The notes: generated by a model not told the origin, from the letters alone. A stretch of DNA of 64,000 bases from an uncultured Pseudomonadota bacterium (GCA_949298405.1 CASFWA010000001.1:129883-193882), one strand, 5' to 3'. Counted from the first letter of the stretch, positions 33,608-62,544 are shown. Numbers and translations are program-made.

Positions 33608-33679
33608 TTCTTATGCCCTTAATTGTTTTTTGTTTTTGTAAGAATTGTTTTTGCGATATAAATCGCGATTTTTTATGAA

Positions 33680-33745
33680 TTAATAATTGAAACGTACCCC
33701 AAAAGGGGATGAGTAAGAACTAAAAAAGTAATATTCTTTTATCAT
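33680..33745 (-). CDS. Putative serS leader peptide MIKEYYFFSSYSSPFGVRFNY (21 aa)
   Basis: Hand-translated uORF ending 72 nt upstream of serS; Ser codons AGT TCT (TAC) TCA TCC; homologous to the thrS uORF. Confidence 0.8.
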   Translation of the reverse strand: MIKEYYFFSSYSSPFGVRFNY

Positions 33746-33755
33746 AACAATATAA

Positions 33756-33784
33756 ATCATAAAATATTGACTGAAAAAAAGCAA
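33756..33784 (-). promoter_or_regulatory. Promoter of the serS leader
   Basis: TTGCTT-17 bp-TATGAT, 10 nt before the leader ATG. Confidence 0.7.
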
Positions 33785-33820
33785 TAAAAAATAGGGCGTT
33801 TTCATGGTGATAGAAAAAAA

Positions 33821-33856
33821 TTGCGCCATTGGGGGCTTTATGTTATGCTAAGCCCC
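33821..33856 (+). promoter_or_regulatory. trxB promoter overlapped by an inverted repeat
   Basis: TTGCGC-17 bp-TATGCT; GGGGCTT-N11-AAGCCCC brackets the -10. Confidence 0.55.
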
Positions 33857-33880
33857 GAAAAGATAACTAGGAGATTTTTT

Positions 33881-34792
33881 ATGACAGATATTGTTATGCA
33901 TGACGTTATAATTTTGGGCTCTGGTCCCGCTGGACTTACTGCAGCGCTTTATTGCGCACGCGCAGGAAAGAAAACGCTTGTTCTGGGTGGTGATAGATTA
34001 GGGGGGCAGACCGCAGGAATTGCAGTTCTGGAAAACTACCCAGGTTGGAAAGGAAGTGGCTTAGAACTTGCAGAGTTTATGAAAACACAGGCCGAAACAT
34101 TTGGCGCAGAAATTATTTTTACGTCTGCAAAAAATATTTCCGGTGATGCAGAAAGTGCTTTTAGTATTTTAGCAGATGACGGAAATAGATATGTTGGTAA
34201 AACTGTCATAATTGCAACAGGTGCTTCACCACGTAAGTTGGAAATAGAAGGTGCAAAAGAATTCTTTGGCAAGGGCGTTTCTTATTGTGCGACTTGTGAT
34301 GGATTCTTCTATGCTTATAAAGATGTCATTGTTATGGGTGGCGGAAATTCTGCTTTAAATGATGCTTTGTATTTAGCAGATATCGCAAAAAGCGTAAAGA
34401 TTGTTTATCGCAAAGGTGCGTTTACTCGTGCAGAGGCAGTTTTGCGTAATCGCGTCGCAGAACGTGAAAATATAGAATGCTTATTTAATATGGATTTAAA
34501 GAAAATAGCAGCGTTGCCAGATTCTGATAGATTAGTTGTGACAACTACAGATGATAAAGAAATTGTTTGTGATGGCTTGTTCGTTGCAATAGGGCATGAG
34601 GCAAATACTGATTATTTAACAGAAGATATTCGTCGTGATAATATGGGGCGCTTGATACCAGCAGAATTACCAGAAGGTGTATTTGTAGCAGGTGATGTTC
34701 AGTCAGAACTAAAAATGCAAATCGCAACAGCAGTAGGAACGGGTTGCAGTGCAGGTATGGATGCAATCGCGTATTTAAATTCGCGTGGTTAA
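33881..34792 (+). CDS. trxB: Thioredoxin reductase
   Basis: GSGPAG, GVSYCATCDG, GGGNSA, VFVAGD; AGGAG SD before ATG 33881. Confidence 0.9.
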   Translation: MTDIVMHDVIILGSGPAGLTAALYCARAGKKTLVLGGDRLGGQTAGIAVLENYPGWKGSGLELAEFMKTQAETFGAEIIFTSAKNISGDAESAFSILADDGNRYVGKTVIIATGASPRKLEIEGAKEFFGKGVSYCATCDGFFYAYKDVIVMGGGNSALNDALYLADIAKSVKIVYRKGAFTRAEAVLRNRVAERENIECLFNMDLKKIAALPDSDRLVVTTTDDKEIVCDGLFVAIGHEANTDYLTEDIRRDNMGRLIPAELPEGVFVAGDVQSELKMQIATAVGTGCSAGMDAIAYLNSRG

Positions 34793-34823
34793 TAAAAAGG
34801 TCTGGGAAACAGACCTTTTTATT
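34791..34823. terminator. Bidirectional terminator
   Basis: AATAAAAAGGTCT-loop-AGACCTTTTTATT. Confidence 0.75.
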
Positions 34824-35322
34824 TTTTACTAAAATGTTTTTTTAGAATTTCATATGCGGCAGAAATTTTTGTAAATTCTGTCGTTGCTTTATCTTTTTCA
34901 GATGCTGTGTCTGGATGATACTTTTTGGCAAGTGCACGGTACCTTGCAGAAATTTCACGCCATGATGCACTTATCGGTAATTCAAATGTTTTTAATGCAG
35001 ATACAACATTTGTGGGTAGTTTGCTTTTAGGTGGCATTTTATCAAATGTACCGCGCCCAGTTATAAAATCGTTTAAAAAATTTACATATTCTGCTTCGTC
35101 TGCGTTTGCTTTATTTTTATCTTTAAGCGGTGCACCAAATGTCTGACGTTCCCAATCTGCTTCTATTTCTTCTGGGGTCATATCTGCATAATAATTCCAA
35201 TTCTTATTATATTCAGCAGCGTGTTCTTTGCAGAAAAACCAATAGTCTTTTAATTCGCGCGTCTTGGGTGCACGACAAGTACCAGCCTTGGTACAGCCTG
35301 GATGATCACATTTTTTTATCAT
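34819..35322 (-). CDS. DnaJ-domain protein (alphaproteobacterial type, C-terminal J domain)
   Basis: CDHPGC..G..RAPK..FC.EH..EYNKNWNYY N-terminus; HPD motif in C-terminal J domain. Confidence 0.88.
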   Translation of the reverse strand: MIKKCDHPGCTKAGTCRAPKTRELKDYWFFCKEHAAEYNKNWNYYADMTPEEIEADWERQTFGAPLKDKNKANADEAEYVNFLNDFITGRGTFDKMPPKSKLPTNVVSALKTFELPISASWREISARYRALAKKYHPDTASEKDKATTEFTKISAAYEILKKHFSKK

Positions 35323-36185
35323 ATATCGGATTCCTTTTTATGACCTAACGGATGATGCATTTGTACAGTTTCACGCAATTTTTCTGGCAGGACATGCGTA
35401 TAGATTTGCGTGGTTGATATATCTTCATGCCCAAGCATGGTCTGTATTATTCGTAAATTTGCACCACCTGCAAGAAGGTGGGAAGCAAAAGAGTGACGCA
35501 GAACATGCGGACTTACCCGATGGGGGTCAATCCCTGCAAGAACAGCACATTTTTTCAGAATTTTAAAAAATCCGTCCCGGGTTATATGACCGTCTTTCCC
35601 ATTAGATGGAAACACGTATTTTGATTTTTCATCGTCACGAATGGATAACCATTTTTCTAAAGCATGTTTTGCGCGTTCATGTATCGGTACCATTCTTTCT
35701 TTTGCGCCTTTGCCATGAATTAATAATTTATCACCTAAATATGCGGTCGTTGGCAATTCGCATAATTCTGAAACACGCAAACCTGATGCGTATAATAACT
35801 CTATCATAGCACGAAGTCGAATAGAGTTCTTTATATCACCTGCAGAAGATATTAATAATTCTATTTCTTCAACTGATAAAAATTTAGGAAGTGCACGCAT
35901 TCTTTTTGGTAATTCCAGATTAGATGTTGGGTTTTCTTTTATTATCTTTTCCAACATTAAAAATTTATAAAATCCGCGTAATGCGCTGGCTTTCCTAGCA
36001 ACGGAAGATGCTTTGTCGGGAAGGTCTGATAAATATTTTTGTATGTCTGCGCTTGTTGCACCCATTAAACCGTTCGGTATGCTTTCATCCGCATGACGCA
36101 AGTCACTGGCATAACTTTCCAGTGTTTTTTGACTGCGACCTTTTTCTGCAGAAAGTGCTTCTAAAAAAATATCTATATAGTTCAT
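35319..36185 (-). CDS. xerD: Tyrosine recombinase XerD
   Basis: LYASGLRVSEL, GKGAKER, SPHVLRHSFASHLL, LGHEDISTTQIYTHV; start set at ATG 36185. Confidence 0.9.
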   Translation of the reverse strand: MNYIDIFLEALSAEKGRSQKTLESYASDLRHADESIPNGLMGATSADIQKYLSDLPDKASSVARKASALRGFYKFLMLEKIIKENPTSNLELPKRMRALPKFLSVEEIELLISSAGDIKNSIRLRAMIELLYASGLRVSELCELPTTAYLGDKLLIHGKGAKERMVPIHERAKHALEKWLSIRDDEKSKYVFPSNGKDGHITRDGFFKILKKCAVLAGIDPHRVSPHVLRHSFASHLLAGGANLRIIQTMLGHEDISTTQIYTHVLPEKLRETVQMHHPLGHKKESDI

Positions 36186-36313
36186 GGGTATAAAACGATT
36201 TCTGTTACATTCTGAGCAGGTGGAAATGATATTATCATTAATACGATTAAGATAACTATCAAAGCCCATATTATTATTTTATTCCTGGTTGTATTCTTTT
36301 TACGAATAGGCAT
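36182..36313 (-). CDS. Small single-TM protein, 43 aa, not in the ORF track
   Basis: MPIRKKNTTRNKIIIWALIVILIVLMIISFPPAQNVTEIVLYP; AAGGA SD 8 nt upstream; its TGA overlaps the xerD ATG. Confidence 0.75.
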   Translation of the reverse strand: MPIRKKNTTRNKIIIWALIVILIVLMIISFPPAQNVTEIVLYP

Positions 36314-36331
36314 GTGGGTTATCCTTTTGGC

Positions 36332-37405
36332 TTATATTGTATCAAAACTTGCGATAAATGCGCCCGCACCAGCAATTATTATAAGTTGCGGTGCAACAAT
36401 TGCTAGTAATGGTGGCAGTACACCTGTTGAACCAAGGGCATTAAACATATTTGTTAAAAAATATACCGCAAAGCATGTAATTATACCTATGCCAAATTTT
36501 AAACCGAAACTATAATTCCTACGCTGCTTCGTTTGCGAAAAAGCGACACCAAGTGTTGCCATTGCTATCATTGTTAACGGTAAAAATAGCAGAGTCCAAA
36601 ACTGAACAAGGTGACCGCGTACTGTCACGCCGATTGCCTGCATCTTTTTTATGAAGTTCGGTAAATCCCAGAATGATATTTGATCCGGTTGTAAATAACG
36701 GTCTAGAACAGTTTGCGGGTTTAGTAGTGTATTTATATGCCAATCAACGGTTTTGGGAATTCCATTGTCGTCCCATGTGGTTGCTTTTTTTGCGTCTAAA
36801 CCTGCATCAGATAGTGTCAATGTTTCTGCTTCTACACGTTGGGTTAACTTAAATGTTTTGTCTTGTACATATACAGTGGCATTTTCAAACAATAAAATAT
36901 TTCCAGATTTATGCATGTTTTTGGCGTTCATTGTTATATAACCGTTATCAGACGATTCGCGTAGCCATATTGCATCATCAATTAAAACCAGGTGGTCTGG
37001 TGTGATATTCTTTTCATTTAGACCAACGGAATATGGATTGATAATCGTTGTCGCGATAATACCAACAAGTGCGGCACCAAGCAAAAATGGGCGTGCCATT
37101 TGATAAGGTGATAAACCTGCGCTGGCAATAATTATTTTTTCGCTTGATTTTGTAAGATTATATGAGGCAAGTAAGGTTCCCATAAAAACGGCCAGCGGTA
37201 AAAATAGAGGTACATATTCAAGCAATCTTACCCATGTTTCTGATAAAGCATCCATAACAGTCGGGTTTGAAGGCAGTCTTTCTACAAAAGTTACCGCCAT
37301 GATTATGCCGCATACCACAAGCATAACCAAACCAAAGCCAGAAAAAAATCGGCGCATTAAAAATCTATTTAATATATTAAGTCTAAACATATATATATCC
37401 ACCAT
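36332..37405 (-). CDS. lptG: LPS export permease LptF/LptG family (start may be ATG 37390)
   Basis: 3 TM + periplasmic domain + 3 TM; SSE...ASAGLS, PDQISFWDL, GVLPPLLA..AP. Confidence 0.85.
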   Translation of the reverse strand: MVDIYMFRLNILNRFLMRRFFSGFGLVMLVVCGIIMAVTFVERLPSNPTVMDALSETWVRLLEYVPLFLPLAVFMGTLLASYNLTKSSEKIIIASAGLSPYQMARPFLLGAALVGIIATTIINPYSVGLNEKNITPDHLVLIDDAIWLRESSDNGYITMNAKNMHKSGNILLFENATVYVQDKTFKLTQRVEAETLTLSDAGLDAKKATTWDDNGIPKTVDWHINTLLNPQTVLDRYLQPDQISFWDLPNFIKKMQAIGVTVRGHLVQFWTLLFLPLTMIAMATLGVAFSQTKQRRNYSFGLKFGIGIITCFAVYFLTNMFNALGSTGVLPPLLAIVAPQLIIIAGAGAFIASFDTI

Positions 37406-37492
37406 TAACTAAAAAAGTATACCTTGTTCAATTGACAATTGCAAAATTAAAATGAATGCTTATAATTTCGATACAATATATAGGATTTAGAT

Positions 37493-37963
37493 ATGGAAAA
37501 AAGGCCGATTTCAAGGGCTGGGTTTGACAGCCTTATTAAAGAATTAAAAGATTTAAAAGAAGTTCAACGTCCAGAAATTTTAAAGACTGTTCAATGGGCG
37601 CGTTCGTTGGGGGATTTGTCTGAAAATGCAGATTATAGTGCTGCAAAGGAAAAACAACGTCAAATTGATAAGCGTATACAGTTTATCGAAGAAGTTATAA
37701 ATAATGCGACAATAATAGATGTTGATTCTTTGTCAGGTGACCGTGTTGTGTTTGGTGCGCGCGTCGTTGCAGAAGACGAAGACGGTAACAGAATGCAATG
37801 CAGAATTTTGTCTGATATCGAATCTGATGGAAAACAAGTGATTTCTTGTACTTCACCTGTGGGACGCGCTTTGATAGGTCGTTGTGTCGGTGATACCTGT
37901 ATTGTTAAGTTGCCTAGTGGTGAAAAAGAATATGAAATCTTGGAAGTAAAATTTAAGGACTAA
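37493..37963 (+). CDS. greA: Transcription elongation factor GreA
   Basis: ARSLGDLSENADY.AAKE, VVFGA, IS..SPVGRALIG. Confidence 0.95.
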   Translation: MEKRPISRAGFDSLIKELKDLKEVQRPEILKTVQWARSLGDLSENADYSAAKEKQRQIDKRIQFIEEVINNATIIDVDSLSGDRVVFGARVVAEDEDGNRMQCRILSDIESDGKQVISCTSPVGRALIGRCVGDTCIVKLPSGEKEYEILEVKFKD

Positions 37964-37966
37964 GTT

Positions 37967-39736
37967 TTGCCTGTTCGCGTTCTGCCTGATTTTTTAGTTA
38001 ATCAAATTGCCGCAGGTGAGGTAGTGGAACGTCCTGCGAGTGTCGTAAAAGAACTGGTAGAAAACGCGTTGGATGCTGGTGCAGACCAGATTATGATAGA
38101 TGTTATTGATGGTGGCAGAACTTTAATTTCTGTTATAGATAATGGTTCGGGAATGTCGCGTGATGACTTGGCAAAAAGTATCACAAGGCATGCGACATCA
38201 AAATTACCAGATGATGATTTGTTGAATATTAATTTTATGGGATTTCGTGGCGAGGCTTTGCCTTCAATCGCATCTGTATCTGATATGACAATTGATACTT
38301 GCAACGGAATGGATGAAAATGGTTGGTGTTTAAATTGCACAACAGGTGATATCAGGCCTTCTGACTGGGAAACAGGAACAAGAATAAGAGTTAATAATTT
38401 ATTTTCTAAAACTCCTGCTAGATTAAAGTTCTTGCGTGGTGACCGTGCAGAAATGATTTCTGTGTTAGACGTTGTAAAGCGTTTGGCTATGGCGCGCCCT
38501 GATGTGGGGTTCGTTTTAAATAACAAATGGCGCTTCCCAAAAAATCAAGATATGTTGGAACGTATCGCTGCAGTTATGGGTGATGATGCGCGTGGGCGTA
38601 TGTTGGAAGTAAATGCAGTTTCTTCTTCAAACAAATTATTAAAATTTCGTGGCTTTATTTCTGAACCGACATTGCGTCGTGCTTCATCTGTTGACCAATA
38701 TTTATTTGTAAATGGCAGACCTGTAAAAGATAAGGTTTTAGTCGGTGCTTTGCGTGCCGCATATATGGACGTTATGCATGCACGCGAATTCCCGCTATGT
38801 GCACTGTATCTTGACTTAGAGCCAAGAAGTGTGGATGTAAATGTATCACCTGCAAAGACAGAAGTTCATTTCTTAGAACCGTCCCATATTAGAGGCTTTA
38901 TTATTAAATCACTTCGCAGTGCGCTGGCAAAAACTTTGGAAGAAAAAGTTGATGAGAGTCCTTCAAATGTTTCTGCCGTTTCTGCATTTCAGACAAGCGC
39001 ACCTAAATTAAATTTTGGTATAAATAATCGTATGTGTGTTTCTTCTCCTAATAGAAATGCACCTGATGTTGCTTTTATGTTTAAACCTGTAATAAACAAT
39101 GGAACTAATGTCGCATCGCAGGAAGAAGACAGGTCCCTTTATACAGAGACAGGTAATCCAGTAGAAAATGATTTGCCGTTGGGGCGTGTTATAGGGCAGG
39201 TAGGTAATAAATATATCCTGGCACAAAGCGGTGAAAATCTGGTAATTGTTGATCAACATGCCGCGCATGAACGTATTACTTATGAGAAACTTCGTAAATA
39301 TGAAATAAAAGTACAACCATTATTAACTCCAATTGTTGTAAATATGCGTATTGAAGATGTTGAAGCGGTTTTGTCTATCGTAGAAGAAATGAAAAAGTCG
39401 GGGTTGCATATCGATTCTTTCGGTGATGACGCAATTGCTATTTTTGAAAAACCTGCAGATTGGGACTTAAATTGGAAAGATTTGTTCCATAGTATAGCGG
39501 ATGAAGTACGTGAATACGGACATTCTTCCCAATTAGGAGAAAAATTACACTTAAAACTTGCAAATTATGCTTGTCATCATAGTGTAAGAGCAGGACAAAA
39601 ATTAGACTTTAATCAAATGGATGCACTGCTTCGAGATATAGAAAAAACTACGCGTGGTGGTGAATGCAATCATGGAAGGCCTGTTTATAAAATCATACCA
39701 CTTACAGAAATTGACGGTTGGTTTGAACGTATTTGA
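37967..39736 (+). CDS. mutL: DNA mismatch repair endonuclease MutL
   Basis: NQIAAGEVVERPASVVKELVEN, GFRGEAL, DQHAAHER, ACH, CNHGRP; TTG start. Confidence 0.97.
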   Translation: MPVRVLPDFLVNQIAAGEVVERPASVVKELVENALDAGADQIMIDVIDGGRTLISVIDNGSGMSRDDLAKSITRHATSKLPDDDLLNINFMGFRGEALPSIASVSDMTIDTCNGMDENGWCLNCTTGDIRPSDWETGTRIRVNNLFSKTPARLKFLRGDRAEMISVLDVVKRLAMARPDVGFVLNNKWRFPKNQDMLERIAAVMGDDARGRMLEVNAVSSSNKLLKFRGFISEPTLRRASSVDQYLFVNGRPVKDKVLVGALRAAYMDVMHAREFPLCALYLDLEPRSVDVNVSPAKTEVHFLEPSHIRGFIIKSLRSALAKTLEEKVDESPSNVSAVSAFQTSAPKLNFGINNRMCVSSPNRNAPDVAFMFKPVINNGTNVASQEEDRSLYTETGNPVENDLPLGRVIGQVGNKYILAQSGENLVIVDQHAAHERITYEKLRKYEIKVQPLLTPIVVNMRIEDVEAVLSIVEEMKKSGLHIDSFGDDAIAIFEKPADWDLNWKDLFHSIADEVREYGHSSQLGEKLHLKLANYACHHSVRAGQKLDFNQMDALLRDIEKTTRGGECNHGRPVYKIIPLTEIDGWFERI

Positions 39737-39821
39737 TTTTTGGGCTTTTTGATAACTATTTCCTTTACATAATCGGCTTTTTTTACTATTCTGAACCCAT
39801 AAATATACAAGGAGAAATATT

Positions 39822-40121
39822 ATGAATGAAACAGCAGTTGTTGATAATGTAGCGCAAACTACACCTACATGGGATTGGATGGGGCTGTTGCTGTATTGCG
39901 TTGTTGTTTTTGCAATCATTTATATCTTTATGGTCAGACCAAATAAAAAGCGTATGGCTGAATATCAAAAGATGTTGGATTCTTTGAAAGTCGGTAATCG
40001 TGTTTTGGCGGCTGGCATATATGGAACTATCAAAAAGATAAACGAAAATACAATCGAAATGGAAATCGCAAAAGGCGTTGTTATCGAAGTTAATAAAAAC
40101 GCAGTTGCAAATGTTGAATAA
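39822..40121 (+). CDS. yajC: Preprotein translocase subunit YajC
   Basis: TM helix then RPNKKR, LKVGNRV..GIYGTI; precedes secD. Confidence 0.93.
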   Translation: MNETAVVDNVAQTTPTWDWMGLLLYCVVVFAIIYIFMVRPNKKRMAEYQKMLDSLKVGNRVLAAGIYGTIKKINENTIEMEIAKGVVIEVNKNAVANVE

Positions 40122-40133
40122 AAGGGTTTGGTT

Positions 40134-41693
40134 ATGTTTAAAAAACTAGCAATAATATTTGTCGCGGTATTTGGCGTATTGCTGGCAGTGCCTACATTGG
40201 CACCTAGTTTGGCACCTTATTTTCCTTCTTGGATTCAGCCTATTTCTTTGGGGTTGGATTTAAAGGGCGGGGCACAACTTCTGTTAGAGGTTGATACCGA
40301 TACAATGTTTCGTGAAAAGGGAATGCAATTATATGATGATGTGCGTAGCGCATTGATTGATCGTGATAAAGGTGTAATTCGTTTCTCTAATTTACGTAAC
40401 AATGACGGTGTTGTGTCTTTGGTTGTTCGTGAAGAAGCAGAAGTTTCTGATGCAAAAGGTCGTTTAAGAAGCGTTCTTGGGGATTCTGTTGATATTTCTT
40501 CTGATGATAAAACACTTACGTTGGCTTATACTGCAAAAGCAAAAGAAGAAATGGTGCAAGACGCATTGGCACGTAGTATAGAAATTGTGCGTCGCCGTAT
40601 TGACGCGTTGGGTACGAAAGAACCTTCTATTCAAAGTCAGGGTGGAAAGTATATCTTGATTCAATTGCCTGGTGTTGATAACCCGGAACGTATAAAAGAG
40701 TTAATTGGTCAAACCGCAAAAATGACTTTCCATTTGGTAAATGAAAATGTGACTCAGGAACAGTTGTCTTCTGGTCATGCACCAAAAGGAACAGAATTCT
40801 TGCCATTTATGGATGCGCCCGACCAGAAGATTCCTGTTTATACGCGTATAGAGGTTTCTGGTGAATCTTTAAAAGATTCTCAGGCTGATTTTGACCAGCA
40901 TAATATGCCTGTTGTGACAACTACTTTTGATGCAACGGGTGCGCGCAAATTTGCAAAGTTAACAACGGACCATGTAAATGAACGCTTTGCAATAGTTTTG
41001 GACGGCAAAGTTTTGTCCGCACCAACTATTCGTGAACCAATTCCAGGGGGACGTGGGCAGATTTCAGGTGGTTTTACTTTGCAAGGTGCAAAAGATTTGG
41101 CGGTTCTTTTGCGTAGTGGTGCGTTGCCCGCACCTTTGCAGGTTATCGAAGAACGTACCGTCGGTGCAGGCTTGGGTGCTGATACTATTGCCGCCGGTAA
41201 AGTTGCTTCTTTGGCAGGTATGATATTTATTATGATTTTCATGATTTTCTGCTATAGAGCCTTTGGGGTTATTGCAAGTTTTGTTTTGGTTGTAAACTTA
41301 GCGATGATTATAGGTATTTCTGCATTGCTTGGGGCAACGCTTACATTGCCTGGTATTGCAGGTATCGTGCTTACCTTGGGTATGGCGGTTGATGCAAATA
41401 TTTTACCGTTTGAGAGAATCCGCGATGAAATTAGAGAAGGGGTGACGCCATTACGCGCAGTAGAGGCAGGTTTCCATCGTTCTATGAAAGCGGTTATGGA
41501 CGGAAATTTAACCAATTTAATTTGTTCGTTGGTATTGTTCCAGTTCGGTGCAGGTCCGATTCGCGGTTTTGCAGTCACTTTGTCGGTCGGTGTTTTGACC
41601 ACATTGTTTACATGTGTATCGTTGTCTAAGGTCATCATCGACTGGTATATGAACGGCAAAAATAAAAAAATTGGATACGTAAAAAATAAGTAA
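40134..41693 (+). CDS. secD: Protein translocase subunit SecD
   Basis: LGLDLKGG, RRRID.LG..EP, LRSGALP, LTLPGIAG..LTLGMAVDAN. Confidence 0.97.
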   Translation: MFKKLAIIFVAVFGVLLAVPTLAPSLAPYFPSWIQPISLGLDLKGGAQLLLEVDTDTMFREKGMQLYDDVRSALIDRDKGVIRFSNLRNNDGVVSLVVREEAEVSDAKGRLRSVLGDSVDISSDDKTLTLAYTAKAKEEMVQDALARSIEIVRRRIDALGTKEPSIQSQGGKYILIQLPGVDNPERIKELIGQTAKMTFHLVNENVTQEQLSSGHAPKGTEFLPFMDAPDQKIPVYTRIEVSGESLKDSQADFDQHNMPVVTTTFDATGARKFAKLTTDHVNERFAIVLDGKVLSAPTIREPIPGGRGQISGGFTLQGAKDLAVLLRSGALPAPLQVIEERTVGAGLGADTIAAGKVASLAGMIFIMIFMIFCYRAFGVIASFVLVVNLAMIIGISALLGATLTLPGIAGIVLTLGMAVDANILPFERIRDEIREGVTPLRAVEAGFHRSMKAVMDGNLTNLICSLVLFQFGAGPIRGFAVTLSVGVLTTLFTCVSLSKVIIDWYMNGKNKKIGYVKNK

Positions 41694-41705
41694 AAGGTTA
41701 GTGTT

Positions 41706-42572
41706 ATGAAACTGAAATTTATGAAGTATCGTAAATTGTCCTATTGGATTTCTGGCTTGTTAGTCGCTTTGTCGATTTTATCTTTGGCAACGCGTGGTCT
41801 GAATTATGGTATTGATTTTGCTGGTGGTATTTCTATGGAGGTCACACCTGTATCCGCAGATTATACAATTGATAAAATGCGTCATGCTTTGGCCGATTTT
41901 AATCCAGAATTGCAATCGATTGATAATAAGTCTATTTTGGTTCGTGTTGGTTTGCCAAAAGGTGCAACTGATGCGCAGCAAAATCAACGTGTCGCAGAAA
42001 TTAAAAATATCTTGGGTGATAATGTTCAATATTCCCAAGTACAAATAGTTGGACCAAAAATTGGTGGCGAACTTGTTCGTGGTGGTATTTTGGCGGTATT
42101 ATTCTCGTTCATATTAATGGCGGTCTATGTATGGGTGCGCTATCGCGGTGGTTATGCTGTCGGTTCTTTCCTGTCTTTGGTTTTGGACTTTATTATAATG
42201 TTTGGATTTTTCTCTGTCACAGGACTAGAATTTAATCAGACGTCTATTGCGGTAATTTTGATGGGGGTTGGATATTCTATTAACGATAAGGTCGTAAATT
42301 ATGATAGAATAGAAGAAAATATTAAAAAATATCATAAAATGCCAATGTCTGATTTAATTGATTTGTCTGTAAATGAAATGTTGCGCAGAACTATTATGAC
42401 AGGTGTGTCTACTATACTTGCTATGGTTGCACTGTATTTGTTTGGTGGAACAATGTTGCAAGAATTTGCAATATCTATGACTTTTGCCGTTATTATGGGT
42501 ACGATGACAAGTATATATATTTCAAATGTAATTTTGTATCACTTTAACCTGCGTGATAATGAAGAGAAATAA
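41706..42572 (+). CDS. secF: Protein translocase subunit SecF
   Basis: GIDFAGG, VGPKIG.EL, GYSINDKVV.YDRI. Confidence 0.96.
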   Translation: MKLKFMKYRKLSYWISGLLVALSILSLATRGLNYGIDFAGGISMEVTPVSADYTIDKMRHALADFNPELQSIDNKSILVRVGLPKGATDAQQNQRVAEIKNILGDNVQYSQVQIVGPKIGGELVRGGILAVLFSFILMAVYVWVRYRGGYAVGSFLSLVLDFIIMFGFFSVTGLEFNQTSIAVILMGVGYSINDKVVNYDRIEENIKKYHKMPMSDLIDLSVNEMLRRTIMTGVSTILAMVALYLFGGTMLQEFAISMTFAVIMGTMTSIYISNVILYHFNLRDNEEK

Positions 42573-42612
42573 AAAGTTGTGTTGCATCAAAGCAAAAAAA
42601 GAGGAGGGTAAA

Positions 42613-52030: not shown

Positions 52031-52043
52031 TGAGGCTTTATAA

Positions 52044-53966: not shown

Positions 53967-53978
53967 AGGTTGTGCGTT

Positions 53979-55988: not shown

Positions 55989-56018
55989 AAGAAAAATAAA
56001 TAAGTCGTAAATTGCGGC

Positions 56019-56225
56019 TTATTTATTTTTTATTTTATTTAGAATCCATATTCTGATTGCAGATGATAGGTTTGTGTCAGGTGTTCGATTTGAGTCTATT
56101 TCTGTGATAATTGATGCAATAGATTTGTTTTCTGCTTTTGCAATATCATGTAAACATTCTATGAATTCTGATTCCATAGAAATACTTGTTTGATGACCTG
56201 ATAAAGAAACTGATATTTTTTTCAT
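56019..56225 (-). CDS. Ribbon-helix-helix domain protein (RHH_4-like)
   Basis: SVSLSGHQTSISME..F...L..IA, NLSSAIRIWIL. Confidence 0.85.
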   Translation of the reverse strand: MKKISVSLSGHQTSISMESEFIECLHDIAKAENKSIASIITEIDSNRTPDTNLSSAIRIWILNKIKNK

Positions 56226-56229
56226 AATT

Positions 56230-56664
56230 TTAATTTTTACCAGCCATTAAGCAATCTGTCAATGCCTTGTAAGGGTCATCGTATTTGCGTAGTGGATTTA
56301 GGGATAGATTATCTAACATATAGCATGTACCAAAAGAATCTACTGCGAACCAAAATAAATCATTTCGACCGAATACTGTTTTCCCCCTCATACGTGCGTG
56401 TTTTATAACGGATTTGTTTATTTCTGTTATGTTGGGAACAGGAAAATTGGAACCAATTTGGTATTCTGATGGACCAAAAATATAGCCATTGCCAAGATTT
56501 ATCCCCCCGGTCTTTTCATATATTTTTATTAAAAAAGCCGGCAACATCGCTGCACACATTTGTTGCAATGACATGTTAGATAAACTTATTTCTTGGTTGT
56601 TTGTTGCAGGGGCAAATGTTGCGCCTTGTTTCTTTATGCCGGATAAAAATTCTTCTTGGGTCAT
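56230..56664 (-). CDS. SMI1/KNR4 (SUKH)-like protein
   Basis: PATNNQEI...LPAFLIKIYEKTGG pattern resembles the SMI1/KNR4 N-terminus. Confidence 0.45.
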   Translation of the reverse strand: MTQEEFLSGIKKQGATFAPATNNQEISLSNMSLQQMCAAMLPAFLIKIYEKTGGINLGNGYIFGPSEYQIGSNFPVPNITEINKSVIKHARMRGKTVFGRNDLFWFAVDSFGTCYMLDNLSLNPLRKYDDPYKALTDCLMAGKN

Positions 56665-56677
56665 AAGCGTTCTCTTT

Positions 56678-57181
56678 TTACATATCTCGTTCCGCAGATA
56701 TCTGGGCTGCTAGTTGCGATAGTCTATCTTCTGTCGCGTTTCCACCGTCCCCACCAGATGCTGTGTGCGCCGGAACATAAATCTTTTTTACTGGATTTGG
56801 TAACCATATAGTTTCGTTACCATATTGGTCTATTATAAATAGGTCTAGGTTATGTGAGTGTGGAAATGTTTTGCACATAAATAGGTTGTCTATCGATAAT
56901 TTACCACCCCATACCAATGGTATTCTGAACCTTATAGATAAGTTAGCAGGAATTTTCCTGCCCATTATTAATGCCATAAATTCTTCTTGGCTTAGGTTCA
57001 TAAAAGCAAGTTCTTCAACAGAATCTGTTAAACTTGTTATAAATTCGTGGCAGAGTTTTTTATATTGCTGAAACCAATCAGAAGGTACTTGCGCAGGAAT
57101 AGGGGATATGCTTATTATTGGCATATCTTCCATTCGCATATCGGCTAATTTTTGTTCTGCGGATTCTTTACTTAATTGCAT
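56678..57181 (-). CDS. Hypothetical protein with degenerate HNH-like motif
   Basis: IRFRIPLVWGGKLSIDNL...PHSH resembles HH-x2-P-x3-GG-x5-NL...H without the first histidines. Confidence 0.5.
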   Translation of the reverse strand: MQLSKESAEQKLADMRMEDMPIISISPIPAQVPSDWFQQYKKLCHEFITSLTDSVEELAFMNLSQEEFMALIMGRKIPANLSIRFRIPLVWGGKLSIDNLFMCKTFPHSHNLDLFIIDQYGNETIWLPNPVKKIYVPAHTASGGDGGNATEDRLSQLAAQISAERDM

Positions 57182-58101
57182 TAAATTTTCCCTATATAAT
57201 TAATAACGGTGTCAATGTATTGGGAGTATGCGTCAAAATTACCGTCATCATCGTCTGGAATGGCCGGATTAGGTACGTTCTGAATATAACTTTTTAATTC
57301 TTCAATAGTTTTAAACATTAATATATCTTGGAATTCTGATGTAGATGCATCAGGTGCGTCTATTATAAAACCATTTATATTTATATATATATCATCTAAT
57401 GTGTCAGAGAATATTTGAGATAGTTTGTCTATCATTCCACGTAAGTCTGTTGTCTTTATTCCAACCGCACCAATCCATAAATTTTCATTTGTACCTATGG
57501 CTAATAAATTAGTTTTTATTCCATTAATACGTGGGTCTTGTTTGACAATATATCCTGCGTTAGAAAATATTTCTTTGATTTCAGAATAATCTTGTTCTGT
57601 ATGTGGATTGGCTGTGGATAGATGTGACAGCGGCGTAGCGCTGTTTTCAGTGCTATGATTTGTTAGGTTAAAAGTAGGTATGTTTAACCGTGGCGGACGT
57701 GAAATAGAAATACTTGATACAGGTGTTTGATGTGGTGCAGTCTGCGTTTGTGCAGGCAGAACTTCTAATGTTGATGCATCATCAATCGGCGTGTCCTTTT
57801 TTTCTGATTTTGTAGGTGCATTATTAGATGTGGTATGTATTTTTGGTAGTTTTATTTTTCGTAGTTTGGGGCGTACAATAGTGTATAAACCAAATAGCAT
57901 TACGAATATTGTAATAACAAGAGATACATAAAATTTTGAATCTATAGGGGATTTTGCTGCTTGTAAATAAGATAAATATTCCCAGTGCTGTAATGAAAAA
58001 ATGTTAAAACCGAATATTGTGTTAAACCAAAAACTTGCCCCCAGGGTGACGGCAATTAACCACAACATTCCAAGTAATATATTGTCTATTTTGTTTTTCA
58101 T
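57181..58101 (-). CDS. Two-TM membrane protein with Pro/Thr-rich linker and C-terminal alpha/beta domain
   Basis: Two hydrophobic helices, low-complexity linker, C-terminal domain FSNAGYIV...LLAIG..LWIG. Confidence 0.7.
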   Translation of the reverse strand: MKNKIDNILLGMLWLIAVTLGASFWFNTIFGFNIFSLQHWEYLSYLQAAKSPIDSKFYVSLVITIFVMLFGLYTIVRPKLRKIKLPKIHTTSNNAPTKSEKKDTPIDDASTLEVLPAQTQTAPHQTPVSSISISRPPRLNIPTFNLTNHSTENSATPLSHLSTANPHTEQDYSEIKEIFSNAGYIVKQDPRINGIKTNLLAIGTNENLWIGAVGIKTTDLRGMIDKLSQIFSDTLDDIYININGFIIDAPDASTSEFQDILMFKTIEELKSYIQNVPNPAIPDDDDGNFDAYSQYIDTVINYIGKI

Positions 58102-58144
58102 TTGTCTTTGATTATATCATATTTATGATAAAGTAAAAAGAGTT

Positions 58145-58819
58145 ATGATAAATACAGATTTCTTTATTGGTGATGATTTTAAAGGGTTTGCTTTATGGAT
58201 AAAGTCTGTCGCAGAGCAAACTGATTTAGCATATGCTGCAGAATGTGCCATTGAACAAAATTTGGACTTCGTTTCTGTTGCTCCTAAATCGGTACCTGTC
58301 ATATGGCCATGGCTGGAAAATAAAAAAATAAAAATATTTGCTCGGTTTTATTTAGATGGTTCTGCTGATTCTGTTGATACTTTGTCTGAATTAACGATAA
58401 ATATTAATACTGTCTTAAAGCAGGGGGCTGATGGCGCGCAGGTGTTTATTAGATTTAAAGATTTGGATTCTTTTGTATCTCAACTATATCTAATTAGAGA
58501 TGATTTGTTCTTTAATAAAGATTTATATGTCGGTATTAATATCGCAGATATAGGACCTTTTGATTGGGATGATGTTTGGAAGAATTTAAGTAAAATTCAT
58601 GCAACTGGGCTAATACTTGCATTGCCTATGGATAATGGAGATAAATCCGATTTTGTTGGACGTATATATTCTGCACTTGAATCTTGGAATAAAAATTATG
58701 ATTTTAATTTACATTTTGCCTTGGGGGAAAATCCTTTGCGGATAGAGCAAACTAAGCGTTTGATGCAATCAATGCAACCAGATTTGGTTGATAAAATAAG
58801 ATTCTTTATCAATGTTTAA
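58145..58819 (+). CDS. Hypothetical protein, possibly a degenerate DeoC-like TIM barrel
   Basis: FVSVAP and VLKQGADGAQV loosely echo DeoC (VCVxP; GADEIDMV); no catalytic Lys motif seen. Confidence 0.4.
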   Translation: MINTDFFIGDDFKGFALWIKSVAEQTDLAYAAECAIEQNLDFVSVAPKSVPVIWPWLENKKIKIFARFYLDGSADSVDTLSELTININTVLKQGADGAQVFIRFKDLDSFVSQLYLIRDDLFFNKDLYVGINIADIGPFDWDDVWKNLSKIHATGLILALPMDNGDKSDFVGRIYSALESWNKNYDFNLHFALGENPLRIEQTKRLMQSMQPDLVDKIRFFINV

Positions 58820-59448
58820 TTTTTTATTACTAGATATTTGGGGTGGGTTGTGCCCGCCTTGTTTTTGTGTTGATACCTAGTTTCTATGGTTGGTAGGTCG
58901 GGTGTTTGTACCTTTAAATTCGTCTTTTTTAATTCTTCTAGTATCCAATCATAATATTCCCAATGGTCTGTGCCTATTATTATCTCGCCATTATCGGTTA
59001 AATGATTGGAAAGGTTTTTGATAAATTCTGCATGTAATAATCTGCGCTTCTCGTGTTTTGCTTTTGGCCATGGGTCAGGATGTAATATCCAAATTTGTTC
59101 AAACTTCGAATCGGTATTCCTTAGAAAATCGCGAACGTCATCAGCAAAAATACGAATGTTTTTATATTCTGGGCGAACAGAATTTGTTTCATCTGTAATC
59201 GCAGATAATAATGACGCAACGCCATTCATAAAAGGTTCTGCACCAATTACCGTTTTGCCAGGATTGTTTTCTGCAAGTTCACGAAGATGCTCGCCAGCAC
59301 CAAAGCCTATTTCTAGGATATTTAGTTCGTTTTCCGATTCGTTTTTAGGTAATAGGGTTGGCAAAATATTATCCAGCAGCCATTGTTGACGTGCAGATAG
59401 TTTTTTTCCATGCCTGCGACCAAATGTTCTTATTTCTTGTTTTTCCAT
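58816..59448 (-). CDS. trmB: tRNA (guanine-N7)-methyltransferase
   Basis: RTFGRR, LEIGFGAGEHL, GAEPFMNG, HPDPWPKAKHEKRRL, TD, TRY; start ATG 59448. Confidence 0.94.
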   Translation of the reverse strand: MEKQEIRTFGRRHGKKLSARQQWLLDNILPTLLPKNESENELNILEIGFGAGEHLRELAENNPGKTVIGAEPFMNGVASLLSAITDETNSVRPEYKNIRIFADDVRDFLRNTDSKFEQIWILHPDPWPKAKHEKRRLLHAEFIKNLSNHLTDNGEIIIGTDHWEYYDWILEELKKTNLKVQTPDLPTIETRYQHKNKAGTTHPKYLVIKN

Positions 59449-59493
59449 ATAATTAGTATAAAATTCGAAAAATAAGAATACAAGGAAATATAA

Positions 59494-60042
59494 ATGATTG
59501 AGTTTCCAAATGTCATAAATTGTGATGGTTTTAATCTTGAAAAAGTTGAACCTTCTTTTGATGTGGCGAAGTACTTGTTTAATATCGTTGATTCGCAACG
59601 GGAATATCTTGGTAAGTGGCTTATATGGGTTGAAAAATCAAATAAACCAGAAGATATGTATGACCATTTAAATAAAGCGTCTAAAACTAATAATGGAAGT
59701 TATTATATTGTCCTAGACGGTAAAATCATTGGTAGTGTTGGTTTGGGAATTATATCAGAAACACATAAAATTGGTGAAATAGGATACTGGCTATCAAAAG
59801 ATTATAACGGTCGCGGGATAATGACTAACGCAGTTAAAACGTTGAGTGATTTCGGATTTAATACTTTGGGTTTAGATAGAATAGAAATTCTTGTGGATAC
59901 AGAAAACCGTGCTTCACAGGCTGTTGCGGAAAGGGCAGGGTTTGAAAAAGAAAGTGTATCAAGACATTCTTTTATTCTGCATGGTAAATCTCGTGATAAT
60001 ATAGTTTTTGTGAAATTTAGAAAGGGTTTAGAAAATGCGTAA
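59494..60042 (+). CDS. GNAT N-acetyltransferase (RimJ/RimL family)
   Basis: EIGYWL...GRGIMT, NRASQAVAERAGF..E. Confidence 0.9.
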   Translation: MIEFPNVINCDGFNLEKVEPSFDVAKYLFNIVDSQREYLGKWLIWVEKSNKPEDMYDHLNKASKTNNGSYYIVLDGKIIGSVGLGIISETHKIGEIGYWLSKDYNGRGIMTNAVKTLSDFGFNTLGLDRIEILVDTENRASQAVAERAGFEKESVSRHSFILHGKSRDNIVFVKFRKGLENA

Positions 60043-61615
60043 TGGTTTAAGTAAAGATTTAATTGTTCGTGTGTTGGGTGCAGAACCTAAATATACTTTG
60101 GCAGAATTGGAAGAAAAATATCCATTGCGTGATTTGCCAGATGGTGCGTTTGTGACGCGTTTCGCGCCAAGTCCGACAGGCTATATGCACATTGGGGGTC
60201 TGTATCAGGCCTTGGTTGATTGTAAGTTAGCACAGCAAACTGGAGGCGTTTTTATGCTGCGCATAGAAGATACGGATACAAAACGTGAAGTCGCAGATGC
60301 TGTTAAAATTATCGAAGATTCTATGCATAGATTTGGTCTTCAATATAATAAGGATGAAAAATATGCACCTTATTATCAATCTAAGCGTAAAGATATTTAT
60401 CACAGTGTCGCAGCAGATTTATTGGCACGTGGCTTGGCATATCCTTGCTTTTTGACTGCGGAAGACATGGAAAAAATACGCGAAAATCAAAAAGCAGCAG
60501 GTTTTGCAACTGGTATATACGGTGAATTTGCTCGTGATCGCAATTTAACAGAAGAAGAAATAATTGCGCACTTGGATAACGGTGAAGTACCGACGATTCG
60601 TTTGTATTCAATGGGTAACCCTGAAAATCGTATCTTCTGTAAAGATGCTGTTCGCGGTTCAATAGGTTTTCCAGAAAACAATGAAGATATTGTTTTAATT
60701 AAATCTAATGATGGACTTCCTACTTATCATTTTGCACATTTATGTGATGACCACTTTATGCGTACAACACATGTTGTTCGTGGTGAAGAATGGTTGCCTT
60801 CTTTCCCGTTGCATGTGCAATTATTCCGTATGATGGGGTGGCAGACACCTATGTATATTCATACATCTACTATTGATAAAATCGATTCGGAAACAGGTAA
60901 ACAACGTAAATTGTCAAAACGCCATGATCCAGAAGCAAATGTTGCATTCTTCTTGGCAGACGGTTGGCCAACAGAAGCGGTTTTAGAATATCTTGGAAAT
61001 ATCGCTGCGTCTGGTTACGAAGAAGCAAAAATGAAAGGGCAGGTTAAATCTATCTGGGAATATGAAATGCGCCCAAAGAAAATATCTATGTCTGGCGCGC
61101 TGTTTGATATGAAAAAGTTAGAATGGTGGGCAAAAGAATTTATTGCTTCTTTACCTGTTGATGAGTTAGTAAAACGTGTTCGTGATTGGGCGGATGAATA
61201 TGATGCTGTATGGGCAGCAAGAATCGCAGATAAGCCAGAATACTTAAAAAATATTTTGGCAATTGAACGCGATAATCCAAAACGCATTCGGAAAGACTTT
61301 ATTACTTGGAAACAAACTTTACAGGAAGTTGCTTATTTCTGGGATGATTTGTTTGTGCCTAATACGGAATATGTTTATAACAAAGATGTTTTATCTGCTT
61401 TCTTAGAAACTTTTAATGTGTCAGATGATAAAGACACTTGGTGGAACAAAATTGTCGCCATTGCTACAGAAAAAGGTGTTAAAAATGGTGACGTGGCGAT
61501 GAATTTGCGTGTCGCATTGACAGGACGCACAAATACACCCGACTTATATTCTATTATGCATGTAATGGGTGAAGAAAAAGTTATTGAACGTATAAAGGGC
61601 GCTATAAATGGTTAA
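60035..61615 (+). CDS. gltX: Glutamate--tRNA ligase
   Basis: TRFAPSPTGYMHIGG, LRIEDTD, PTYHFA..DDH.M..THVVRGEEW, KLSKR, LRVALTG. Confidence 0.96.
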   Translation: MRNGLSKDLIVRVLGAEPKYTLAELEEKYPLRDLPDGAFVTRFAPSPTGYMHIGGLYQALVDCKLAQQTGGVFMLRIEDTDTKREVADAVKIIEDSMHRFGLQYNKDEKYAPYYQSKRKDIYHSVAADLLARGLAYPCFLTAEDMEKIRENQKAAGFATGIYGEFARDRNLTEEEIIAHLDNGEVPTIRLYSMGNPENRIFCKDAVRGSIGFPENNEDIVLIKSNDGLPTYHFAHLCDDHFMRTTHVVRGEEWLPSFPLHVQLFRMMGWQTPMYIHTSTIDKIDSETGKQRKLSKRHDPEANVAFFLADGWPTEAVLEYLGNIAASGYEEAKMKGQVKSIWEYEMRPKKISMSGALFDMKKLEWWAKEFIASLPVDELVKRVRDWADEYDAVWAARIADKPEYLKNILAIERDNPKRIRKDFITWKQTLQEVAYFWDDLFVPNTEYVYNKDVLSAFLETFNVSDDKDTWWNKIVAIATEKGVKNGDVAMNLRVALTGRTNTPDLYSIMHVMGEEKVIERIKGAING

Positions 61616-62354
61616 AACAAAAAAAGTAGTTCGTGCAAAATTGAAAGCGTTAAAGTCCGATTCTAGGGGCAGTAGATTACTTAGAATTTTGCAGGCAACA
61701 GGATTGTTCCGTTGGGAAAGACCTTCTACTAAATCAGAAGAAGTTTTGAATATTCTAACGCATGGTATAGGTATAGGTTTGGCAATTGCAGGACTTACAT
61801 TGTTAGTCGTATTTGCTGCGCTGGCAGGTAATGCTTGGGCTATTGTATCTTGTGCTATATTCGGTCTGACAATGTTCACATTATATTTTGGTTCGACTAT
61901 GTGTCATGCAACAATCGGGCAAAAAAGTGAGTGCTTTTTTGAAGTGTGGGATAGTGTCGCGATATATGCTTTGATTGCAGGTACTTATACCCCGTTCTTG
62001 TTAGTTAATTTACGCGGGTGGACTGGTTGGACTGTGTTCGGAATACTGTGGGCAATCGTTATATTCGGCGCAATTATGAAAATCAGAAACCCAAGACAGC
62101 AACCAAAATGGATGGTCGCTTTATACCTTGTTATGGGGTGGACTTTGATATTTATTTTGCCTGCGATGCTTAGAAATATTCCAGCACGTGGATTGTGGTT
62201 CATTCTGGCTGGCGGATTGTCTTACTCTTTGGGGGTTATATTCTATCTGTGGCGTAAAATGAAATACTCGCACGCAATATGGCATCTGTTCGTTATAGGA
62301 GGAAGTGTATGTTTCTTCTTCGCCGTATTGTTCGGGTGCATTATCGATTTTTAA
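61608..62354 (+). CDS. Hemolysin III/PAQR family membrane protein
   Basis: EE.LN.LTH, IAGTYTPF, YLVMGW, GG..Y..G..FY, HAIWHLFV. Confidence 0.92.
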   Translation: MVKTKKVVRAKLKALKSDSRGSRLLRILQATGLFRWERPSTKSEEVLNILTHGIGIGLAIAGLTLLVVFAALAGNAWAIVSCAIFGLTMFTLYFGSTMCHATIGQKSECFFEVWDSVAIYALIAGTYTPFLLVNLRGWTGWTVFGILWAIVIFGAIMKIRNPRQQPKWMVALYLVMGWTLIFILPAMLRNIPARGLWFILAGGLSYSLGVIFYLWRKMKYSHAIWHLFVIGGSVCFFFAVLFGCIIDF

Positions 62355-62365
62355 GTCTTATAAAG

Positions 62366-62394
62366 TTGACTTATTTTAATAATAGTATTAATAT
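62366..62394 (+). promoter_or_regulatory. Promoter of the thrS leader
   Basis: TTGACT-17 bp-TAATAT, 10 nt before the leader ATG. Confidence 0.65.
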
Positions 62395-62404
62395 ATTTGT
62401 CAGC

Positions 62405-62461
62405 ATGATAAAAAATATATTGTTCTTCATTACAACTACAACAACCCCTTTGGGGGTGTAG
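62405..62461 (+). CDS. Putative thrS leader peptide MIKNILFFITTTTTPLGV (18 aa)
   Basis: uORF with five tandem Thr codons (ACA ACT ACA ACA ACC) ending 83 nt upstream of thrS; homologous to the serS uORF. Confidence 0.88.
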   Translation: MIKNILFFITTTTTPLGV

Positions 62462-62544
62462 TTTCTATTTGCGATTTCTTCGCACAGTGCAATAATCAAA
62501 ATAATCTATAAGTTTTAATTTATAAAAAAATAAAGGTTTTTATT

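Follow-up and report, generated by a model that had tools for sequence, protein, structure and literature searches.

What do two unlinked tRNA synthetase genes gain from being preceded by what looks like the same short leader, each copy with its own run of codons? The question is raised by serS and thrS, two aminoacyl-tRNA synthetase (aaRS) genes in a stretch of 64,000 nucleotides (nt) from an uncultured Pseudomonadota bacterium (GCA_949298405.1, CASFWA010000001.1:129883-193882), which as a whole is called the window here. An earlier note, made from the sequence of the window alone, had described the two leaders as one portable scaffold with a swapped amino acid sensor, and the leader features that it listed all lie where it had placed them. 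In both leaders, a promoter (P1) directly precedes a short open reading frame (ORF), which contains a block of codons specifying the amino acid used by the downstream synthetase, and a CCCC-loop-GGGG hairpin (hairpin 1) takes its first bases from the last codon of the block (ACC or TCC). We conclude that the leaders of thrS and serS are very probably sensors of their cognate amino acids of this leader-peptide kind, and that they are one cassette in which the codon block has been exchanged.

The genome has 898 kb in 7 contigs and a GC content of 37%. According to the available text of a study of its order, Rs-D84, genomes in this group are smaller than 1 Mb and lack amino acid biosynthesis (PMC12306168).

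One leader cassette with an exchanged codon block

The match between leader and gene is consistent across relatives. A Thr-rich leader precedes thrS at all 23 same-genus loci with enough upstream sequence and at three of six loci from other families of the order, and 56 distinct thrS leaders with Thr codons were collected in total, named records included. A Ser-rich leader precedes serS at 11 of 24 same-genus loci under a counting rule that scored the leader of L003, with two Ser codons only, as none; Ser-rich leaders are also present in two other families. Left out of these comparisons were L033 (9 nt of upstream sequence only), L002 (incomplete upstream region), and L030 and L029 (spurious ORFs within the upstream gene). 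At serS loci that lack a leader, one promoter alone precedes the ATG, at a comparable distance. In every relative that carries the leader, the codon block is cognate to the downstream gene, and because this match holds across genes and genomes, there is little doubt that the ribosome reading the block is the sensor. In the thrS leaders, the peptide before the block varies freely, and there is no such variation in the hairpin or in the block, a run of 3 to 7 Thr codons of which the last is ACC. The shared ATG ATA AAA start and the two Phe residues at codons 7 and 8, which the earlier note had listed as parts of the scaffold, are present in both leaders of this genome and are not kept by its relatives.

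When the two leaders of the window were aligned directly, the result was marginal (score 31, z = 2.4, with 20 of 500 shuffles scoring as high). Their kinship is carried instead by a covariance model seeded with 13 thrS leaders, which recovered 52 of the 56 thrS leader loci at E values up to 0.002 and also matched several serS leaders at 21 to 32 bits. In other genomes, serS leaders scored 33 to 45 bits with this model (genome-wide E = 5e-5 to 4e-3), and all five of the second matches that were fetched proved to be serS leaders. Since a model built on thrS leaders alone detects serS leaders elsewhere, we take the two cassettes to be homologs that differ by an exchange of the codon block. The linker of the serS cassette is, in two other genera, identical or closely similar to that of thrS and is followed by a TTGCG. 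-35/hairpin-2 element and TATAAT. With the genome of the window itself excluded, the model matched 114 of 151 genomes of the order, including 103 of 107 in the genus and 111 of 121 in the family, and none of the 19 genomes in family f3.

The earlier note had also proposed a search for the scaffold on further genes. The model built on thrS leaders found no third kind of gene, and a genome-wide motif scan for CCCC-T-rich loop-GGGG gave five matches, two of which are the leaders themselves and three of which lie elsewhere (C4 resembles an ordinary terminator and C5 is apparently in coding sequence). In Rfam searches of the window, which covered described leader and riboswitch families such as Thr_leader and T-box, nothing other than one tRNA reached its gathering score, and at E values up to 10 only unrelated weak matches fell on both leaders.

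The leader ORFs, which are 19 (thrS) to 22 (serS) codons long and end 83 nt (thrS) and 72 nt (serS) before the synthetase ATG, are probably read from the very 5' end of their transcript. In all 53 thrS leaders from relatives, a promoter-like site comes to within 2 to 12 nt of an in-frame ATG downstream (7 or 9 nt for the most part), 6 of 11 serS relatives have TATAAT 9 nt upstream of the leader ATG, and across five gene sets the -10 element of P1 ends 6 to 10 nt before the in-frame ATG in most leaders. Such short distances leave no room for a Shine-Dalgarno (SD) sequence and fit a leaderless start; the earlier note, too, had seen no SD sequence at either ORF of the window. Judging from promoter position, we infer that P1 transcription begins at or within about 3 nt of the leader ATG. 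Of eight sequencing runs listed, two recorded as RNA and two presumed to be RNA were compared with the window; all four consisted of contigs, none of which covers 62318-62465. The 17-nt promoter spacer reported by that note is present at both genes, whereas its distance of exactly 10 nt from -10 to ATG in both is obtained under only one choice of hexamers.

The two hairpins and an internal promoter

Hairpin 1 is the most conserved element of the cassette. Its CCCC/GGGG pairs are invariant in all 52 aligned thrS leaders, so the thrS set offers no covariation evidence for it; a compensatory change (TCCGC...GCGGA) is found in the serS leader of a relative from another family (L027). Hairpin 1 also occurs, without hairpin 2, in other genera and families. 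A conserved Pro-Phe/Leu-Gly-Val peptide encoded by this segment had been suggested as an aid to stalling. We reject P-x-G-V as a conserved arrest peptide, because in two genera (L054 and L057) the stop codon of the thrS leader sits inside the hairpin 1 loop; it is the RNA hairpin that is conserved.

Does hairpin 1 resemble a terminator? Under a loose terminator-like rule, it does so in 31 of 56 thrS leaders, 7 of 11 serS leaders, and none of 14 hisS leaders, and the tails are interrupted. The thrS hairpin 1 of the window scores as terminator-like (5 pairs, including 4 GC pairs, and a T-rich tail; shuffled sequences gave a mean of 0.2 sites) and the serS hairpin 1 of the window, on its own strand, does not, so that the absence of a GC stem plus U-tract, claimed earlier for both leaders, holds for serS only. 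The T fraction in the 16 nt after hairpin 1 is 0.53 over the 56 thrS leaders, against a background of 0.32 to 0.35; in the serS tail it is 0.42, against about 0.33. A consensus fold of 51 thrS leaders (all but L054, L056, L057, L080, and L088) contains hairpin 1 only and no antiterminator alternative, and reading of the thrS and serS leader sequences revealed no complementary partner for any arm of either hairpin. A classical antiterminator is therefore not supported for these two genes, in agreement with the earlier view that the leaders are not classic terminator/antiterminator attenuators.

The second hairpin of thrS (hairpin 2) is supported by covariation, a check that the earlier note had called for. 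In the 52 aligned thrS leaders, all five of its pairs change on both sides and 94.8% of cells are paired, values reached by none of 500 shuffles and compared with 28 to 78% paired in slid controls. The alignment was fitted to the covariance model and thus leans towards the structure of that model; a script independent of the model found a hairpin at the same site in 52 of 56 thrS leaders, with arms including TGCGG/CCGCG, TGCGA/TCGCA, TGCAC/GTGCG, and TGTGCTG/TGGCACG. Hairpin 2 is unlikely to be a protein operator, given that its arms covary and its loop ranges from 3 to 9 nt, and it is unlikely to be a terminator, given a tail that by reading of the sequences is not U-rich.

What the earlier note had missed is that hairpin 2 overlaps a conserved internal promoter (P2), the -35 hexamer of which, in thrS, is the 5' arm of the hairpin. 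In a 53-sequence alignment, no variation is seen in the TTG of this -35 or at two positions of the -10, and the spacer that separates TTGNNN from the -10 measures 17 nt in 45 and 16 nt in 7 of 54 thrS relatives. Hairpin 2 spans 11 to 19 nt, and its span is almost perfectly balanced by the remaining gap to the P2 -10 (r = -0.96). As insertions and deletions in the hairpin are compensated so that promoter spacing is kept, we argue that P2 is a working promoter. The distance from hairpin 1 to the P2 -35 is 11 to 13 nt in most leaders. Behind the serS leader of this genome we found no convincing P2 (the best candidate agrees at 8 of 12 positions, and its last -10 position is not T), which implies that transcripts from serS P1 must pass both hairpins to express an essential gene.

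On the strand opposite serS (plus strand, 33651-33668), hairpin 2 followed by TTTTTT scores as terminator-like. We saw no gene that this site could end, and it is probably a by-product of the run of A before serS hairpin 2.

Leaders on other synthetase genes

Cognate leaders are present on other aaRS genes too, which the earlier note had missed: six aaRS genes are involved, not two. A whole-genome scan for promoter-proximal short ORFs with amino acid runs gave, under loose ORF filters, 137, 146, and 89 rows with many chance ORFs, from which the aaRS-linked cases were picked by eye and checked for conservation. Cognate leader ORFs precede 6 of the 19 aaRS genes examined (with pheS and pheT taken as one), namely, thrS, serS, ileS, cysS, hisS, and trpS (Table 1), the last four of which were identified above NCBIfam cut-offs. 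No such leader was found on proS, glyS, valS, leuS, metG, alaS, pheS, pheT, aspS, lysS, tyrS, argS, or gltX.

Table 1. Positions of the leader elements and genes discussed in the text (window coordinates for serS and thrS; locus and, in parentheses, genome coordinates for the other genes)
Feature	Position	Strand	Remarks
serS P1 promoter	TTTTCA 33777-33772, 17 nt, TATATT 33754-33749	minus	Promoter scan; 3 nt to leader ATG
serS leader ORF, MIKEYYFFSSYSSPFGVRFNY*	33745-33680	minus	
serS Ser block, AGT TCT TAC TCA TCC (SSYSS)	33721-33707	minus	
serS hairpin 1, CCCC/TTTT/GGGG	CCCC 33708-33705 pairs with GGGG 33700-33697	minus	5' arm begins in last Ser codon
serS hairpin 2, GCGA/TTTATA/TCGC	GCGA 33666-33663 pairs with TCGC 33656-33653	minus	
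serS, serine-tRNA ligase	32327-33607, ATG at 33607	minus	TIGR00414, 413 bits (cut-off 302)
thrS P1 promoter	TTGACT 62366-62371, 17 nt, TAATAT 62389-62394	plus	Promoter scan; 10 nt from -10 to leader ATG
thrS P1 alternative -10, TATATT (overlapping)	62392-62397	plus	Ends 7 nt before leader ATG
thrS leader ORF, MIKNILFFITTTTTPLGV*	62405-62461	plus	No space for Shine-Dalgarno sequence
thrS Thr block (TTTTT)	62432-62446	plus	
thrS hairpin 1, ACCCC/TTTG/GGGGT	62444-62457	plus	5' arm begins in last Thr codon
thrS U-rich linker, GTAGTTTCTAT	62458-62468	plus	Contains leader stop TAG at 62459-62461
thrS hairpin 2, TGCGA/TTTCT/TCGCA	62470-62484	plus	
thrS P2, TTGCGA-16 nt-AATAAT with TG before -10	62469-62496	plus	Promoter scan
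thrS A-rich 5' untranslated region (UTR)	62497-62544	plus	AAAGG at 62532-62536 precedes thrS ATG
thrS, threonine-tRNA ligase	62545-64000, leaves window end	plus	TIGR00418, 588 bits (cut-off 384)
ileS leader, MKQKSIIIIK* (IIII)	L141:293-401 (G000:C1:78692-78800)		Kept at 24/24 same-genus loci
cysS leader, MILYKFNICCCCCCR* (CCCCCC)	L142:1573-1705 (G000:C4:43972-44104)	minus	20/21 same-genus loci
hisS leader, MIYKTFVFSKFHHALAGDCL* (HH)	L143:233-372 (G000:C5:19232-19371)		18/21 same-genus loci
trpS leader, MINISSYFSFLVWWRR* (WW)	L144:218-350 (G000:C6:42517-42649)		

Behind the ileS leader, about 25 nt before the ileS ATG, there is a canonical terminator (GGCGC-ATAG-GCGCC plus T7). Its relatives have a GC stem plus a run of 5 to 7 T, and their masked folds show alternative pairing of the usual attenuator kind; no P2 was found at ileS. 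The canonical terminator indicates that this lineage does employ intrinsic termination for leader-peptide attenuation. In several genomes, the place of a promoter directly upstream of the ileS leader is taken by a tRNA gene.

At cysS, P1 is a perfect TTGACA-17-TATAAT ending 7 nt before the leader ATG, and one arm of a GCAAAC...GTTTGC hairpin overlaps the -35 of P2 in all 11 leaders with a good P2. One relative (L156) retains this palindrome and P2 without a leader ORF. In the cysS relatives, free RNA allows pairing between the Cys codons and the region of the 5' AUG. At hisS, a GCCC...GGGC hairpin, of which one relative (L186) has a compensatory variant, directly follows the His codons and precedes a conserved TG-extended -10; this GC hairpin ends 3 to 7 nt before the P2 -35. 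The trpS gene of this genome is of a divergent type, with a close copy (85% identity) in 1 of 24 same-genus genomes and 33 to 36% identity in the rest. The single close copy (L206) has no leader.

T-boxes are a Gram-positive device, and one in an alphaproteobacterium would be unusual. A weak T-box match lies upstream of aspS (L259:752-1065; G000:C1:120719-121032), with 30.8 bits against a gathering score of 93 and a genome-wide E value of 1.7e-5. Its 3' part resembles a T-box antiterminator; the match spans a tRNA gene (L259:879-949), which makes its 5' part doubtful.

Proposed mechanism

We infer a stalling mechanism in which the state of hairpin 1 carries the signal. P1 would start at or near the ATG, so that the short ORF would be translated from a leaderless message, and the ribosome would meet a run of 4 to 7 codons cognate to the downstream synthetase, followed by the all-GC hairpin that begins in the last of them. 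When cognate aminoacyl-tRNA is scarce, the ribosome would stall on the block, and from about the second cognate codon on it would cover the 5' arm and keep hairpin 1 open. When the tRNA is charged, it would reach the stop just behind the hairpin and depart, and hairpin 1 would fold. If the position of the ribosome sets the folding of hairpin 1 in this way, the state of hairpin 1 is the signal. The hairpin with its U-rich tail would act negatively on the P1 transcript, most likely by weakly signaling termination or a pause, and stalling would allow more P1 transcripts to reach the synthetase gene. A sigma-70-type P2, seen at thrS, at some serS leaders, and at the majority of those of cysS and hisS, would add a basal level beyond the control of the sensor.

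Overall, we favor sensing of charged tRNA by the leader ribosome with hairpin 1 as a negative element for the P1 transcript, to which we assign a probability of about 0.5. The output step is more tentative: premature termination or pausing dependent on hairpin 1 is our first choice, because hairpin 1 is weak-terminator-like in about half of the leaders and ileS has a true terminator, and we hold even this choice to be somewhat doubtful. Several points weigh against it. Hairpin 1 has no antiterminator partner in the folds or the reading of thrS and serS sequences, the U-tract behind it is interrupted, and neither the hisS leaders (0 of 14) nor the serS leader of the window scores as terminator-like. 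Timing is a further difficulty. In the expressome, about 34 nt separate the ribosomal P site from the active site of RNA polymerase. By this geometry, a polymerase that has arrived at the tail of hairpin 1 is followed by a first ribosome that has advanced to the first or second cognate codon at most, and a stall would then differ little from normal passage at the moment when intrinsic termination is decided. A long pause stabilized by the hairpin would regulate in the wrong direction. Finally, termination or pausing at hairpin 1 leaves unexplained both the covariation of hairpin 2 and the presence of a GC hairpin on or next to the P2 -35 in thrS and cysS.

Alternative output steps

Among the outputs listed in the earlier note, Rho-dependent termination, a polymerase pause hairpin, and mRNA decay are still candidates, whereas translational control by masking of the ribosome-binding site (RBS) is not supported. 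The strongest of the alternatives, which is nonetheless unlikely, is Rho-dependent attenuation. Leader RNA left bare after translation would load Rho, a stalled ribosome would hide the loading site, and polymerase would be stopped before the synthetase gene, perhaps at a pause caused by hairpin 2 or by a -10-like element. In the E. coli tna operon, a stalled ribosome masks a Rho site in this manner. Such a system would regulate in the right direction without an antiterminator and would escape the timing problem of an intrinsic terminator; a rho gene is present (654 bits against a cut-off of 509), and the Thr and Ser blocks contain C. The composition of the leaders is less favorable. There is no clear rut (Rho utilization) signature, with C at 0.15 to 0.16 and C/G ratios of 0.99 (thrS) and 1.22 (serS) over the P1 transcript, the final 45 nt of the thrS UTR have a C/G ratio of 0.79, and serS leaders use G-containing AGT and CGN codons. 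Because the Cys and Trp blocks are G-rich, the Rho idea cannot cover the whole regulon.

Rather less probable still is control of mRNA life, in which the stalled ribosome and the state of hairpin 1 would set cutting of the P1 transcript by RNase E and hairpin 2 would shield the 5' end of the processed message. A precedent is provided by erm messages, which are stabilized by a stalled ribosome. Only parts conserved in all families (the leader, hairpin 1, and an AU-rich stretch) would be needed, an RNase E/G homologue is encoded (460 bits against a cut-off of 326), and the linker is conserved between the serS and thrS cassettes. AU-rich linkers are, however, common in a genome of 37% GC, and the linker doubles as the region just upstream of P2.

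The placement of P2 invites a further alternative, which we consider improbable: the leader and hairpin 1 might gate the P1 polymerases that cross P2, with the synthetase made mainly from P2. A passing or pausing polymerase would block or help P2, and hairpin 2 would stop or ease polymerases. Several features of the region behind hairpin 1 are consistent with this. A GC hairpin overlaps or abuts the P2 -35 in thrS (52 of 56) as well as in the cysS leaders with a good P2, and lies close to it in hisS; P2 spacing is held at 16 to 17 nt despite hairpin indels (insertions and deletions); hairpin 1 keeps its short distance to the -35 in most leaders; and the cysS locus without a leader ORF (L156) keeps its palindrome and P2. 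On the other hand, read-through P1 transcripts encode the synthetase too, and interference with P2 would therefore largely cancel out. Hairpin 2 has no U-tract, and a clear P2 is missing from serS of this genome, from leaders of two other families, and from ileS. A ribosome-gated stream of P1 polymerases acting on the gene's own promoter would be a new wiring for an attenuator, itself an improbable outcome, and may work by occlusion, by polymerase hand-over, or by easier passage through a promoter-like pause rather than by a plain choice of pass or stop. If true, it would explain why a hairpin without a U-tract or an antiterminator partner suffices. Neither Rho, mRNA decay, RBS masking, nor frameshifting accounts for the recurrent position of a covarying GC hairpin on or beside the P2 -35.

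Translational attenuation of the mycobacterial poly-Cys type, in which a stalled ribosome opens a hidden synthetase RBS, is in the available text of one preprint proven for leaderless cognate small ORFs (sORFs) without terminators (bioRxiv 10.1101/834739), but it is very improbable here, since masking of the leader leaves the unpaired probability of the SD-to-AUG region unchanged (0.46 to 0.50 in thrS, n = 56; 0.53 to 0.53 in serS, n = 11), the RBS lies 80 to 90 nt away and beyond the internal promoter, and hairpin loops able to pair with the SD sequence are not conserved. Programmed frameshifting at hungry codons was rejected, as the alternative frames are not consistently open and have stops at varied places.

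Relation to known leader systems

The earlier note had proposed an undescribed system, and in this respect it went too far, as leaderless, cognate-rich leader peptides before aaRS genes have been published (PMC4007540, PMC8079986). In Streptomyces lividans TK24, a leaderless leader peptide, thrL (MKRVRPFLETTPGFVPAR), precedes thrS, and leaders are also reported for alaS, trpS, and leuS; the mechanism is stated to be unclear in the available text of that paper (PMC8079986). As described there, thrL resembles the thrS cassette in having its ORF at the 5' end of the transcript, Thr codons followed by Pro-Gly, and one hairpin without a U-rich tract upstream of thrS; it differs in having two Thr codons only and in belonging to another phylum (PMC8079986). 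The same text gives no shared cassette, internal promoter, or second covarying hairpin (PMC8079986). In Deinococcus deserti, 14 leaderless cognate-rich leader peptides are reported in the passages available, with that of cysS shown (PMC4007540). There, too, the transcript starts at the AUG of a cognate-rich ORF before an SD-led aaRS gene, and the ORFs are read as attenuation sensors of a regulon over several aaRS genes (PMC4007540). The D. deserti starts were mapped by differential RNA sequencing (dRNA-seq), whereas those given here are read from the sequence, and the structures behind the ORFs are analyzed here and not in those passages (PMC4007540).

The mycobacterial poly-Cys attenuators, described as a "ribulon" in the available text of the preprint, likewise consist of leaderless sORFs with a cognate run and no terminator, and their loci respond jointly through ribosome pausing (bioRxiv 10.1101/834739). 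Unlike our reading of the thrS and serS cassettes, they act on translation by opening a structure that hides the RBS, which is not supported here, and their targets are genes of Cys metabolism and not aaRS genes (bioRxiv 10.1101/834739).

Two Streptomyces aaRS genes, trpS and leuS, have classical attenuators according to the available part of another paper (PMC1262725).

Classical ribosome-mediated attenuators are those of the E. coli trp, his, and thr operons and of pheST. They share with the cassettes a short ORF with cognate codons and the principle that the position of the ribosome decides the fate of the transcript, and the ileS leader of this genome, with its canonical terminator, fits the classical type. 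In contrast, the thrS and serS cassettes lack an antiterminator alternative as well as a clean U-tract, their leader ORF is probably leaderless, their hairpin begins in the last regulatory codon, and in thrS a promoter lies between the leader and the gene. To our knowledge, Proteobacteria have not been found to control most of their aaRS genes by amino acid supply, and we know of a leader peptide on pheST only among the aaRS genes of E. coli.

Our literature search, which had most subscription journals outside its coverage, found no such leaders in Alphaproteobacteria or in this genus. What is new here is the lineage, the set of six genes, the shared cassette with its exchanged codon block, the hairpin begun in the last regulatory codon, and the internal promoter whose -35 carries a covarying hairpin. 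With a genome of less than 1 Mb and, according to the available text on its order, no amino acid synthesis (PMC12306168), this gut alphaproteobacterium seems to place six aaRS genes under the control of leader-peptide sensors. A natural codon-swap experiment and a clean example of the spread of a sensor from gene to gene are provided by the thrS and serS cassettes, and their compact architecture could reveal how leader peptides without a terminator work, a question that the Streptomyces paper did not answer either. The case should be of moderate to good interest to researchers on attenuation and on reduced genomes, and it bears on annotation, as gene callers miss such leader ORFs.

The start of ThrRS

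One further observation concerns the protein encoded behind the thrS cassette. The threonyl-tRNA synthetase (ThrRS) of this genus begins at a point where relatives with about 62% identity (L094-L118) already have about 60 N-terminal residues, and in those relatives the 300 nt upstream of the corresponding position in thrS are coding. From this comparison, the ThrRS encoded from 62545 seems to be a form without the N-terminal domain.

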